This document shows positions 57,018-61,126 of a DNA stretch of 64,000 nucleotides, piece after piece. Every line of letters starts with the position of its first letter. Position 1 is the stretch's first letter. The notes beneath the pieces are model-generated. The model worked only from the letters and a program-made list of their open reading frames with translations. It was not told the DNA's origin and searched no databases. The stretch is from Candidatus Obscuribacteraceae bacterium (GTDB lineage Bacteria > Cyanobacteriota > Vampirovibrionia > Obscuribacterales > Obscuribacteraceae): the NCBI GenBank assembly GCA_044226015.1, contig JBGAHS010000002.1, forward strand, positions 851,435 to 915,434, in the 5' to 3' direction. The translations under genes and the position numbers were made by a program.

Positions 57018-57962
57018 ATGAGCAAAATTGCAGTTGTTGGAAGCTTGAGCTATGACCTGGTGATGCAAGTTCCTCGCAGACCACAAGTTGGCGAAACGAT
57101 TATTGGCACCGCATTTAATACCTTTGTTGGCGGAAAAGGAAACAACCAGGCGTTAGCAGCAGCACGCAGTGGAGCCGATGTTGTCTTCGTAGGCAAGGTC
57201 GGAAAAGACAACTTCGGAGATCAAATCGCCAACAAGCTGACAGAAACTGGTGTCAACATAGAATTCCTTTTCCGAGACAACGAAGTAAGCACTGGCATTG
57301 CTGACATATTAGTAGATGCGAATGGCGACAACAGCATCTCCATAGCTCCACAAGCAAATGCAAGACTCTCGACAGCAGATATCGACACCGCAAAATCAGC
57401 TATAGCGAACTGCAAACTCATGCTGATGCAACTCGAAATTCCAATTGCCACCGTTCAACACGCGGCAAAACTGGGCAAAGAACTAGGCTTGATGGTGGTG
57501 CTCAACCCGGCTCCTGCACCGTCGGAAGGGTTGCCAGACGAGCTGTTGAAGTTGGTTGACCTCATAATTCCGAACCAAACTGAGGCAGAACTGCTAACTG
57601 GTATCAAAGTTGTAGACATTCTATCTGCTATTGATGCGGCAAAAGCGCTACAGAATAAAGGAATAAACAAGGTCATCATCACAATGGGCGAAATGGGTGC
57701 GCTTCTTGTGTGCGGCGACAACACGGCACATGTATGCCCTGCCTTCGAGGTCGAGGTGAAAGACACTACCGCAGCCGGCGACGCTTTTTGCGGAGCATTG
57801 CTTGCAGCCCTGGCCAAAGGACATGAGCTAGAAATGGCGATGAACTATGCCTGTGCAGCGGGTGCACTGGCGACCACAAAGCTGGGAGCAGAACCATCGC
57901 TGCCAGCGGCATCAGAAGTAAACAAAATGGTAGACGAACGGCTCACTTGCGCCAACGTTTGA
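57018..57962 (+). CDS. rbsK: Ribokinase
   Basis: GGKGNNQA, LNPAP, PNQTE, DTTAAGDAF. Confidence 0.9.
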   Translation: MSKIAVVGSLSYDLVMQVPRRPQVGETIIGTAFNTFVGGKGNNQALAAARSGADVVFVGKVGKDNFGDQIANKLTETGVNIEFLFRDNEVSTGIADILVDANGDNSISIAPQANARLSTADIDTAKSAIANCKLMLMQLEIPIATVQHAAKLGKELGLMVVLNPAPAPSEGLPDELLKLVDLIIPNQTEAELLTGIKVVDILSAIDAAKALQNKGINKVIITMGEMGALLVCGDNTAHVCPAFEVEVKDTTAAGDAFCGALLAALAKGHELEMAMNYACAAGALATTKLGAEPSLPAASEVNKMVDERLTCANV

Positions 57963-58066
57963 TGGCTGCAGCGCAACTCGTTTCATGGCATCTTATCAAT
58001 CTACGAATCGCCGTCCGGCAAGCAGTTTGAGCATACGCGCTTAGGAGCACTTGCCGAACTTCCAAT

Positions 58067-58129
58067 AAAAATGAAACCCATTAGTGGAGTGGGGACTCTA
58101 CTAATGGGTTTCACACCGTGCGACTTCAA
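58067..58129 (-). ncRNA. Putative small RNA, copy 1
   Basis: TAATAT (-10-like), then TTGAAGTCGCACGGTGTGA, a 19-bp stem and TTTTT; homologous to 58756-58817. Confidence 0.55.
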
Positions 58130-58283
58130 AAACATATTAGTTCGCGCTTGTGAAATTCCCGTACCTGGCTGGGTGCCCATACCCAAACTTCCAGAAAATA
58201 ATCAGTGTCTTTTTGAAAATATCGGGGAACCAAAAGGGATGTCACTATGTCTTAGCTGATCGGATGAGTTAGGGGACTAAAAA

Positions 58284-58526
58284 ATGAACACTCAAGAAAT
58301 TCCTGCGGAGCCAATCGAGCCAGATTTCGAAACTATACTTTCAGAGAACGAACCAATCACTAAGCACAGCGCCCGAATTCTGCGCAAGCAAATCCTGCAA
58401 GATGGACACGTAAGCAAAAGAGAACGCGCCTTCTTGAAGGACGTTTTGGACCATGGCAATTTAATGGATGACGAATCCTACTACATTTTATTGGAAGTGT
58501 TATTGAACGGAAGACGCCTCAGCTAG
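58284..58526 (+). CDS. Small hypothetical protein (weak TerB-like DG-x-x-S-x-x-E motif)
   Basis: AGGGGA RBS; 80 aa; QDGHVSKRERAFL. Confidence 0.65.
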   Translation: MNTQEIPAEPIEPDFETILSENEPITKHSARILRKQILQDGHVSKRERAFLKDVLDHGNLMDDESYYILLEVLLNGRRLS

Positions 58527-58755
58527 GCTGCTTAAGCGTAAACGTAAACGAAAGTCCTCTTATTGGATTTCCAAAACGCACTCACCCAATCCAAATTGTA
58601 ATTCATCGAGTCCATCAGGTAATTAAGCTGATGGACTCGGCGTTTAGCTAGAGGCAGAACCCCTTGCCTCCAAGGCTGAATCAGATCACTAACGCCTGGT
58701 CTAGAAGAATAAATTCTAGGTACCATTTTTACACAATCGATCAGTAACCTGAATA

Positions 58756-58817
58756 TTGAAGTCGCACGGTGTGAGTCCCACGAGAAAGCCCCCAGCTGTC
58801 TCGTGGGACTCATTTTT
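58756..58817 (+). ncRNA. Putative small RNA, copy 2
   Basis: TAACCT (-10-like), then TTGAAGTCGCACGGTGTGA, a 14-bp stem and TTTTT. Confidence 0.55.
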
Positions 58818-58828
58818 CTCTAGGCATA

Positions 58829-60379
58829 TCAGCGCAGTTCAGCCTGATCTTCGCTTACCTTAAGCGCCACAGACGCATCAGGCTTCGACTCCGCCCTTCT
58901 AATCCTAAACCAGAAGGTGCTGCCCTCTCCCAATGCCGAACTTACTCCAATTTTGCCACCATGTTCCTCAATGATAGCTTTGGCTATCGCGAGTCCCAAA
59001 CCGGTTCCACCCTTTGCTTTCTCATCAGACTTTTCGACCTGCTGAAAGCGGTCAAAAACCTTCCCGACGAATTCAACCGGAATACCACGACCTTTGTCGA
59101 TAACACTAACTTCAACCAGATTCTCCGCTGTCAACTCATTGACGCAAACGCGAACATCAGACTTTGGCTCGGAATACTTGATTGCGTTTGAGAGAAAATT
59201 GATCAAGACCTGAACAATTCTATCGTTGTCGGCATGCACTAAAAGCTCAGTTTCATCAAAGGAAATAGTGACCTCTTGCTTCGATGCGAACTCCGAAACA
59301 GCATCGAGCGATACCTTGATGATCTCCGAAAGGCTGCAATCCTTAAGCTCTAACTCAAACTTACCAGCTTCCATTTTCTCAATATCAAGCAAGTCATTAA
59401 TCAATCTGATCAAACGATTCGTATTCGACTCAAGCAGCGCAACCTTCCTCTTAGCCTTTTCGGGCAGCTCACCAGTGGCACCATGAGACATCAGAGCAAG
59501 ATTTACTTGCATTGAACTAAGCGGCGTTTTCAATTCGTGAGACACAATTCCGATCAGTTGCTTTTTGAAATCTTCCAATTCTTCCAAACGTGAAGCAGCT
59601 TTGTGGAACGCAGAATCCAGCTCAGCAATTTCGTCTGTTCCACCCACCGCTGGAACTAATTTCTGCCTTGAGGCCAGGCGCTCAGTATTTTCCCGAACCA
59701 CCAGCAATCTCTTTGTGACACTGCGACTGAAATAGTAGGCAAGCACAATAGCCATAACAACATTGAAAATTACGCCACCGAACAAAACCATTCGAATGCG
59801 ATAGCGCATGCGAGCCTTCTGCTTGGGACTCTCCATCTCAAGTTTGACTTCTTCTGCTATTACAGATTTAGTGACAACACCCAACTGATTGACCAGGCGA
59901 TTAATTGATTGAAATTGCCTTCCACGACCAATGAAGCCAGCAAGCCCGGTAACCTCATCTGACGAATCTTTGGACTGAAGATTGTTCACTACTCGCAAGA
60001 GATCAGAAGTGAGTTTCTCAATCTCTTTTATGTCTTTCATCCGATTAGGCTTACTGCGCAACAACTGCTTTAGTTTTGCCGTATTCCTTCGGGTCATTTC
60101 CATGGCCAATTCTGAACGCGCGCTGAAAAGCGGATTCATAGTTATTCGATAGGCACCAGCTGCGGTGGTAGCATCAACCGTTGTTCTTGTCAGCTCATTG
60201 GCACAGGCGATAATTTCCTTTGAGCGAGCCTCAACGTCAGCCTCATGCTCAGCTTGAGTCAGCAAAGAGGTCAATATGACAACAAAAACGATTTCAAATA
60301 CCGATGGAACCGCCACCAGCAACAAACCCTTTTGAGAAATTTTGAGCCCCAGAGCCATTAGTTTTAAAGCTTCCTCCAA
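58829..60379 (-). CDS. Membrane sensor histidine kinase (TM-sensor-TM-HAMP-HisKA-HATPase)
   Basis: VSHELKTPL, NFLSNAIKY, DKGRGIP, FDRFQQ, GGTGLGL. Confidence 0.95.
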   Translation of the reverse strand: MEEALKLMALGLKISQKGLLLVAVPSVFEIVFVVILTSLLTQAEHEADVEARSKEIIACANELTRTTVDATTAAGAYRITMNPLFSARSELAMEMTRRNTAKLKQLLRSKPNRMKDIKEIEKLTSDLLRVVNNLQSKDSSDEVTGLAGFIGRGRQFQSINRLVNQLGVVTKSVIAEEVKLEMESPKQKARMRYRIRMVLFGGVIFNVVMAIVLAYYFSRSVTKRLLVVRENTERLASRQKLVPAVGGTDEIAELDSAFHKAASRLEELEDFKKQLIGIVSHELKTPLSSMQVNLALMSHGATGELPEKAKRKVALLESNTNRLIRLINDLLDIEKMEAGKFELELKDCSLSEIIKVSLDAVSEFASKQEVTISFDETELLVHADNDRIVQVLINFLSNAIKYSEPKSDVRVCVNELTAENLVEVSVIDKGRGIPVEFVGKVFDRFQQVEKSDEKAKGGTGLGLAIAKAIIEEHGGKIGVSSALGEGSTFWFRIRRAESKPDASVALKVSEDQAELR

Positions 60380-60442: not shown

Positions 60443-61126
60443 ATGGCAAAGATTCTAATTGTTGAAGACGACGTTTCATTCGGACAGGGACTTGTAGACT
60501 GGCTCGAATTTGAAAAAAACGAGGTAACCTGGCGCACCGACGGCATCGCCGGGCTAGAGGAACTGCAAAGCGGCAGCGATTTCGACATCATAATCCTAGA
60601 TATAGAAATGCCCAAGATGAACGGCCTTGAGGTTTGCAAGAGATATAGAGATGGCGGAGGAACTACTCCGATTCTCATGTTGACAGGAAAAAACGCTGTC
60701 ACTGACAAAGTTAATGGGCTAGATTGTGGAGCTGACGACTACTTGACAAAACCGTTTCACCCGCGCGAGTTGTCAGCAAGATTAAAAGCTGTCGCCCGCC
60801 GACCAGCAGGGTTGCTTCCCAATATCTTGTCTGCTGGAAACATTAGCTTGAACACGCAATCTTGCCAAGTGTTGAAGGATGGACAAGAAGTCAAGCTGCA
60901 GCGAATGGAATATGCGGTTCTGGAATTCCTCATGAAAAATGCCGGAAAAGTTTACAGCCCAAACGATTTGCTTAACGCGGTCTGGACAGCAGAATCAGAC
61001 CGCTCACCCGAAACAATACGCACATGCATCAAAAAGATTCGCGACAAGATAGATATACCGGGAAAAGATTCAGTAATTCAGAACGTCCACGGCGTTGGCT
61101 ACAAAGTCGTATTGGCCGATAACTAA
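60443..61126 (+). CDS. OmpR-family response regulator
   Basis: IVEDD, LDIEMP, GADDYLTKPF, C-terminal wHTH ending IQNVHGVGY; divergent from the HK. Confidence 0.95.
   Translation: MAKILIVEDDVSFGQGLVDWLEFEKNEVTWRTDGIAGLEELQSGSDFDIIILDIEMPKMNGLEVCKRYRDGGGTTPILMLTGKNAVTDKVNGLDCGADDYLTKPFHPRELSARLKAVARRPAGLLPNILSAGNISLNTQSCQVLKDGQEVKLQRMEYAVLEFLMKNAGKVYSPNDLLNAVWTAESDRSPETIRTCIKKIRDKIDIPGKDSVIQNVHGVGYKVVLADN

Follow-up and report, generated by a model that had tools for sequence, protein, structure and literature searches.

Sibling small RNAs (sRNAs) that depend on two-component systems are known from several bacteria. OmrA and OmrB of E. coli are usually encoded in tandem, share a 5' seed and a terminator, are controlled by an OmpR-family regulator and pair with their targets through their 5' ends, as described in excerpts of PMC4211561. 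In Streptococcus, the csRNAs of the CiaRH system are short terminated RNAs present in two to six tandem or dispersed copies per genome; in their promoters, a direct repeat of 11-bp period stands a constant 10 nt before the -10 element, and they were found by a box-plus-terminator logic (excerpts of PMC3091779). OmpR/PhoB regulators bind 7+4-bp direct repeats (excerpts of PMC4832192). LhrC1-5 of Listeria are multicopy, two-component-dependent RNAs with C-rich sequences that may pair with G-rich ribosome-binding regions (excerpts of PMC4132741). Within the phylum Cyanobacteriota, NsiR1 of heterocyst-forming cyanobacteria is ~60 nt long and encoded in tandem with one promoter per copy, and one copy may sit specially beside a neighbouring gene (excerpts of PMC9045159), while Yfr1 and Yfr2 are short RNAs of seed plus terminator, with Yfr2 present in 1-9 copies (excerpts of PMC6596454). 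Here, we analysed a 64,000-nt stretch of DNA from a Candidatus Obscuribacteraceae bacterium (the window) that holds two units resembling each of these systems in several of the features just named, the regulator and the pairing being predicted.

Both units are built around the 19-mer TTGAAGTCGCACGGTGTGA, which an earlier, sequence-only reading of this DNA had singled out as the identical seed of two inverted copies. It is present exactly at 58756-58774 (+) and 58111-58129 (-) and, with up to two mismatches allowed, nowhere else in the 8.19-Mb genome. The upstream pattern that this reading had described, AGGTAC-N8-CACAA-N8-TAA(CCT/TAT), precedes both copies with the 19-mer 5 nt (copy 1) or 4 nt (copy 2) past the hexamer; GGTAC-N8-CACAA-N8-TAA occurs twice in the window compared with 0.00 times across 100 shuffles. 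Folding bore out the proposed downstream hairpins, which differ in stem sequence, are followed by U5 and have z-scores of -5.40 and -5.75, with equal stability in 0/200 shuffles. The gene coordinates also agree with the notion that the U-tracts are oriented against the neighbours: each U-tract aims at the 3' end of a convergent gene, i.e. rbsK (+) or the histidine kinase gene (-), and on the neighbours' own strands the hairpins have no U-tract. A generic terminator scan of the window returned no sites, which probably reflects its rule of 3-8-nt loops and the interrupted upper stems of the two units. When the RNA start is set 7 nt past the -10 hexamer, following the csRNA convention (excerpts of PMC3091779), both RNAs would be 61 nt long and have the seed at their 5' end (Table 1).

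Table 1. Features of the sRNA locus and its neighbours in window coordinates.
Feature	Position	Strand	Remarks
PfkB/ribokinase-type gene (rbsK)	57018..57962	+	upstream syntenic marker
Predicted sRNA copy 2, ~61 nt	58067..58127	-	predicted start
Copy 2 intrinsic terminator	58067..58114	-	CCCC loop, U5 tract
Copy 2 invariant seed	58116..58127	-	from the alignment of copies
Copy 2 -10-like hexamer TAATAT	58134..58139	-	from spacing after the box
Copy 2 regulator box	58148..58165	-	pattern match, predicted site
Promoter-like GGGAAC-N17/18-GTC of the 80-aa ORF	58225..58252	+	upstream of 9/9 orthologues; separate from the sRNA units
80-aa ORF	58284..58526	+	conserved, no Pfam family; syntenic neighbour rather than predicted target
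Hairpin after the 80-aa ORF	58607..58639	.	z -3.99; likely the ORF's terminator
Copy 1 regulator box GGTAC-N5-T-NN-CACAA	58719..58736	+	direct repeat with 11-bp period, about -38 to -21; putative response-regulator site
Copy 1 -10-like hexamer TAACCT	58745..58750	+	8 nt past the box
Predicted sRNA copy 1, ~61 nt	58757..58817	+	predicted start 7 nt past the -10 hexamer
Copy 1 invariant seed GAAGTCGCACGG	58758..58769	+	same in 14/14 aligned copies
Copy 1 intrinsic terminator	58771..58817	+	long stem, C-rich loop (CCCCA), U5 tract
Sensor histidine kinase	58829..60379	-	CHASE3, weak HAMP, HisKA, HATPase_c
OmpR/PhoB-family response regulator	60443..61126	+	best candidate activator of the box (predicted)

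The 80-aa ORF is indeed flanked by the two units, as the sequence-only reading had pointed out; the arrangement is incidental, the ORF having a conserved promoter-like motif of its own, which we take to be akin to an ECF-sigma promoter. By language-model features the ORF product is DjlA-N/TerB-like, and a paralogous family of this ORF is present in most genomes of the genus. The end of the copy 2 terminator (58058-58073) and the 3' part of the ORF (58484-58498) share the 13-nt perfect inverted match ACTTCCAATAAAA, which is possibly the scar of an inversion behind the local layout, or chance.

Among 104 genomes of the family, ~61-nt promoter-seed-terminator cassettes of this type (family A) are present in 13 copies in five genomes, all of one genus. 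Twelve of the copies were matches to a box-plus-seed pattern, the reversed-pattern control giving one match, and the 13th was spotted in a fetched locus. A covariance model, as the sequence-only reading had proposed for related genomes, recovered the ~61-nt family: all 13 copies score at least 59.9 bits and nothing else exceeds 31 bits. Because the 13 copies are the training set of the model and match it by construction, the informative part of this result is the absence of further strong matches. An extra copy lies on a metagenome contig (L181), again beside the same 80-aa ORF. Of four weak matches examined outside the genus, none carries the box. The exact seed was found in at least 119 stretches of a species-genome collection and 63 times in viral contigs, and the box accompanies it in 0 of the 80 fetched stretches, which we regard as chance matches, and in 0 of the viral matches. 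A further metagenome match (L180) lies in GC-rich coding DNA; it was rejected as chance and left out of the alignment.

The family A copies in four relatives are arranged head-to-tail, one to three per locus, with rbsK upstream and the 80-aa ORF downstream where the contigs show it. Since the copies in relatives are head-to-tail, the outward-facing layout, correctly described for the window, is a local rearrangement peculiar to this genome rather than a feature of the element. The claimed seed has to be shortened in a similar way: the 12 nt GAAGTCGCACGG are invariant in 14/14 aligned copies, and the identity beyond them in the window copies extends into the base of the stem. The terminator begins within 3 nt of the seed in all copies. 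Ten of its 12 stem pairs are altered on both sides in the alignment, and 95.2% of the cells are paired compared with 29-41% when the partners are slid, a level reached in 0/500 shuffles; the core of the loop is mostly kept as the stem drifts. The GyrB proteins of the seed-bearing genomes are 74-77% identical to that of this genome, and a GyrB tree, used because the rbsK tree is unresolved and included one frameshift-damaged row, places the genomes with the seed and those with the target in a single clade (100/99). Each co-occurrence described below therefore counts as one event and not as five or seven. Two genomes of the same genus, G003 and G005, have a box and a terminator at the locus together with another 5' sequence (L166:1265-1360, L167:1263-1360). 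They form a sister clade that also is without the target gene, which suggests that the seed was replaced or has decayed there. In G007, the rbsK-sRNA-ORF-kinase-regulator locus is present twice (G007:C31:44800-49200, G007:C119:900-5100), and an extra box beside a gap in the assembly suggests a further RNA copy; the contamination of this bin is 6%.

The sequence-only reading had recognised no described family in these units, and Rfam is in line with it: at the gathering scores of its families, Rfam 15 gave 0 matches in the window and 0 in eight loci that hold family A, family B (see below) and the target leader, and what else it returned were three matches at chance level (E 4.6-5.8). A CRISPR-type array was rejected on the grounds that each copy has a promoter and a terminator and that no Cas1 match is present in the 92%-complete genome.

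The box itself points to a response regulator. In a profile of 52 promoters, chosen on the spacing between box and TANNNT, the conserved positions are AC at -35/-34 and CA at -25/-24, followed after a constant gap of 8 nt by TANNNT. The two halves of the box form a direct repeat of 11-bp period, which the variant GTCAC-N5-TGTCAG shows best; another variant of the box is CACA/TCCACA. Thus, of the common regulator or sigma-factor box that had been proposed, the regulator fits better. A sigma-54 (Qrr-type) promoter was rejected because there is no Sigma54_DBD match in the 92%-complete genome and the TANNNT hexamer is conserved instead.

The genome encodes 34 OmpR-type regulators and, therefore, the adjacency of the OmpR/PhoB-family gene is alone a weak pointer. 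Orthologues of this regulator, with 74-80% identity and all at the same locus, are found in 7/104 genomes, which are exactly the genomes with at least two GGTAC-box promoters; three other genomes have a single GGTAC-box match each, i.e. the control level. The recognition helix is identical among the seven orthologues and differs in the four next relatives examined. Named homologues of the regulator come from Candidatus Obscuribacterales. The GGTAC box was not seen in the promoters of the regulator and kinase genes. Pairing of the seed with the leaders of these two genes is weak (best helix scores 5.4 and 6.0, respectively), as it is with seven orthologous regulator leaders (-4.5 to -8.1 kcal/mol) and with the leaders of five neighbouring genes (helix scores 5.0-6.8).

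A candidate target emerged elsewhere in the genome. In 5/5 seed-bearing genomes, the leader of an orphan gene (G000:C1:167186-168352; 388 aa) holds the complement of the seed 36-43 nt upstream of the start codon. The site reads GCGACTTC(A/G) except in G006, where it reads CCGTTCGACTTCAA (13/14 pairs). All 4/4 orthologous leaders keep the site (helix score 9.0-10.4), compared with 0/11 orthologous leaders of four other candidates. The base facing the U of the RNA is A or G in all five genomes, and the G006 site drops one pair and gains four others. In the leader alignment, CGACTTC is the sole invariant run of more than 2 nt from the 5' block of the leader to the start codon, and it stands amid indels. 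The covariance model also matched the antisense strand of this leader in G006. The full-length orphan gene is found in the same 5/104 genomes as the seed; a sixth genome, from outside the genus, encodes the central domain alone and is without the site. Because the five genomes are one clade, this common distribution is not independent support; by contrast, we regard the retention of the site across genomes with 74-77% GyrB identity as independent support for the predicted pairing.

The candidate was chosen post hoc from 19 leaders with a helix score of at least 9, five of which were checked in relatives, and the leaders were taken from crude scripted gene calls; 46/5604 leaders of this genome reach the same helix score. 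The four other candidates, a pirin-like, an SPFH-like and two unnamed genes, were rejected as the site is lost in 11/11 orthologous leaders. Genome-wide approaches gave no further lead: ranking duplexes by energy over the genome leaders produced no standout target, the seed complement is enriched neither in leaders genome-wide nor in box-driven leaders, word enrichment and sense-strand avoidance for the seed are flat, and a scan for 10-nt complements in five relatives (30 loci fetched) gave four leader-like sites, none in common with this genome.

Co-folding of seed and leader yields a modest net gain of -4.2 to -9.0 kcal/mol, which fits with help from a chaperone. The genome has an Hfq-like gene (G000:C7:624641-624775) that is divergent and short and, with an E-value of 7e-5, scores below the Pfam family cut-off. 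With the site blocked, the ribosome-binding site opens at a lower cost in 19/20 folds, and blocking neighbouring leader windows eases the opening equally; the folds thus do not set activation by unfolding apart from the controls. The ribosome-binding region of the target is not exceptionally occluded, its closure being matched by 15-44% of 400 genes.

The orphan gene has a conserved promoter of its own and not the box. In this promoter, an invariant CACCATGGAC lies 18-19 nt before a TAGTAT-like hexamer (L396:1410-1450; G000:C1:167068-167116), and an invariant CAGGCTA is present at the 5' end of the leader. In this genome, the start codon can also be enclosed by pairing of the site with AAGTCGCG, a stretch that copies the seed and lies early within the coding region of the gene itself; the four relatives do not share this stem. 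The orphan protein combines a polar, disordered N-terminus with a small beta-sheet of meandering type and a tail rich in Gln, Tyr and Gly with an invariant terminal RW. It has no Pfam family and no Atlas match, and its structural model is confident for residues 93-205 only. The best fold matches are the sheets of RHS repeats (Z 6.5, rmsd 3.1, 77 aligned residues), below the level of a clear match.

Based on these data, we suggest a model in which both units are ~61-nt sibling sRNAs that are driven by a regulator of the OmpR type, whichever of these it may be, and that pair with the leader of the orphan gene; taken as a whole, we consider this model reasonably likely. Its starting point is what the sequences show: how the cassettes are laid out, that their 5' end is invariant, that the stem covaries and that relatives have sibling copies in tandem. 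The units are very probably transcribed as short RNAs. The 11-bp direct repeat, standing in for a -35 element, would probably be bound by a dimer of the OmpR/PhoB type; that this regulator is the product of the neighbouring gene is slightly favoured. The RNAs would then be likely to pair with the leader site through 8-13 base pairs, and the multiple copies would boost the RNA dose per signal. As for the outcome, repression is the usual one for RNAs with a 5' seed and, because the folding tests gave no direction, this is why we lean towards repression over activation or stabilisation. In this form, the proposal of the sequence-only reading, i.e. paralogous ~60-nt trans-acting sRNAs with a common seed, gains support from the invariant 5' end, the covarying terminator, the promoter of each copy and the conserved complementary site in the leader.

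Other readings of the units can be weighed against the same observations. The RNAs could act chiefly by means of the C-rich terminator loop AGUCCCCAGC on G-rich ribosome-binding regions, as LhrC does, with the 5' seed being secondary. The core of the loop is largely kept despite the drift of the stem, 5/11 long CCC-looped terminators of the genome belong to units of family A or B, GGGG is found in 65/307 leaders of genes for proteins with polar N-termini compared with 411/3778, and CTGGGG clusters at -16 to -11. However, GGGG is expected there as a variant of the Shine-Dalgarno sequence, the GGGGACT match of the 80-aa ORF leader is absent from the other eight leaders, and the loop varies between copies (CCACA, CCTAA and TCCAA in some) while the seed is invariant; we find this reading unlikely. 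A little less likely still is that the RNAs titrate an RNA-binding protein which reads a 5' mini-hairpin of 3 bp (GUC-GCAC-GGY), with the match in the leader inherited by descent. This would account for the strict invariance of the 12 nt, free of wobble-type changes, for the presence of the mini-hairpin in the consensus fold, where the sole change, C to U in 3/14 copies, preserves the pair with G, and for the single target found, and it would suit multicopy small RNAs. Yet neither window copy forms the mini-hairpin when folded as a single sequence, the sequence is without GGA repeats of the Csr/Rsm type, and the leader holds the complement of the seed rather than a copy of it, as an isolated invariant block with variation that is compatible with pairing.

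A complement rather than a copy could also be explained without RNA pairing if a second transcription factor used GAAGTCG as a DNA operator both at the start of these promoters and, in reverse, in the leader of the orphan gene, a DNA site being independent of orientation; the short transcripts would then be by-products or the units decoy sites. GAAGTCG does overlap the predicted start site. Against this stand the strong covarying terminator within 3 nt downstream in all copies, the A or G opposite the U together with the shifted pairing in G006, both of which fit RNA pairing, and family B, which shares the layout and has an unrelated 5' sequence, leaving the operator improbable. GAAGTCG also resembles the 16S decoding site, presumably a short coincidence. 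Finally, the pair might bound a small mobile element as its terminal inverted repeat, or consist of ordinary terminators. Only in this genome are the copies inverted around one ORF between convergent genes, and the sequence-only reading had named a MITE as an alternative; the check found neither genome-wide spread nor target-site duplication. With two copies in the genome, head-to-tail copies in 4/4 relatives, flanks without duplication, a box and a -10 element for each copy and no U-tract on the strands of the neighbours, we have rejected terminal inverted repeats and give this reading hardly any credence. Thus, we return to sibling sRNAs with a pairing 5' seed as the preferred reading.

The same box precedes a second family of cassettes. 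Family B has the seed ACCAGCCCAA(T/C)CAACCCGAT followed by a terminator and is present in 12 copies in this genome behind three variants of the box (e.g. G000:C11:52100-56100, C11:1386948, C11:1387732, C1:1238280, C9:543829 and C6:678358), in 7/7 other genomes of the genus and in 2/2 of one other genus. It forms tandem arrays in the genus, has a variant seed in G003 and G005, has no Rfam match and more copies than family A. The B copies of the GGTAC type share a CCCCAG-like loop with family A; pairing between the two families is weak (-9.2 kcal/mol). Tandem repeats of short period were also noted, one with a period of ~38 nt behind a box-like site in the G000:C1 408231-408467 region and one with a period of 21 nt at a contig end (G002:C31:1-170).

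Coding genes driven by the box (29 in G000, e.g. C11:1031431, C11:502405, C8:691465, C7:105490 and C9:74583) encode polar, weakly hydrophobic N-termini in 11/29 cases, compared with 7% of all genes. Among scanned proteins with such N-termini, 11/20 have no Pfam family. Some of these orphans have weak RHS, LRR, EF-hand, thioredoxin or ChaN/Tiki domains, several have an L-x-x-E-A-F/Y motif past the polar stretch, and their leaders are G-rich. The B seed pairs with the leaders of box-driven genes of this class at -13.0 kcal/mol compared with -9.4 kcal/mol for controls (p 3e-4), a difference of -3.6, compared with which 20 shuffled seeds give -1.8 +/- 0.4; on box-driven genes, the A seed has no comparable effect. 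Pairing of the B seed with the response-regulator leader (L460-L466) reaches -9 to -16 kcal/mol in seven genomes with family B and -5 to -8 kcal/mol in four without it, and feedback of family B on the response regulator is possible on these modelled energies. Our guess is that the proteins with polar N-termini are the cargo of an undescribed export route. More broadly, and rather doubtfully, we speculate that the two RNAs are one arm of a regulatory network of the Obscuribacterales, so far undescribed, in which OmpR-type regulators acting on three box variants drive the polar orphan cargo together with 14 sRNA cassettes of two seed families, every copy having a box to itself, that tune translation of the cargo through its leaders.

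Neither Rfam nor the literature covered, which included few subscription papers, yielded a small regulatory RNA of the Obscuribacterales, and the seed string led to no relevant paper, only to unrelated ones on soil strains. If the model is true, this would be the first small-RNA circuit for the non-photosynthetic, uncultured sister group of the cyanobacteria, with a complete set of candidates: a regulator, a box, an sRNA, a target site and a divergent Hfq. In addition, the box would mark a regulon of orphans with polar N-termini and a larger sRNA family, and thus open a way into how this uncultured group lives.

The systems from which we started allow these units to be placed. They have what defines sibling sRNAs, namely at least two related short genes, each with a promoter and an intrinsic terminator, and a common conserved single-stranded region, and their promoters have the 11-bp direct repeat at a fixed distance from the -10 element that is typical of sRNAs under two-component control. 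Unlike OmrA and OmrB, which are 82-88 nt long (excerpts of PMC4211561), the predicted RNAs have 61 nt, diverging stems and no Rfam match and belong to another phylum; feedback on the mRNA of the activator is also unsupported here, pairing of the seed with the regulator leader being weak. The CiaR box is TTTAAG-N5-TTTAAG at 10 nt from the -10 element, and csRNAs have two stem-loops (excerpts of PMC3091779), whereas here the halves are GGTAC and CACAA at 8 nt and there is one stem-loop; the anti-SD and anti-AUG sequences are absent from the seed, whose predicted site is upstream of the ribosome-binding region. LhrC has three redundant sites (excerpts of PMC4132741), in contrast to the one C-rich loop here, which has no Rfam match, and invariance here falls on the 5' seed, which is not CU-rich. 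NsiR1 copies are identical repeats (excerpts of PMC9045159), whereas the stems of the units diverge. The units have no match to NsiR1 by sequence or Rfam and lack the DIF1 motif, which has the sequence TCCGGA, and their host is without heterocysts. Yfr1 and Yfr2 are phylum-wide (excerpts of PMC6596454), while, across the 104 genomes searched, family A, which has no Rfam match, is confined to a single subclade of one genus. Thus, the units are likely two-component-driven sibling sRNAs in kind that fall outside OmrA/B, csRNA, LhrC and NsiR1 by box or sequence. We regard the sRNA family as real and new, with a specific candidate regulator and a specific candidate target, while the mechanism, i.e. 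siblings driven by a two-component system, is one already known in kind.
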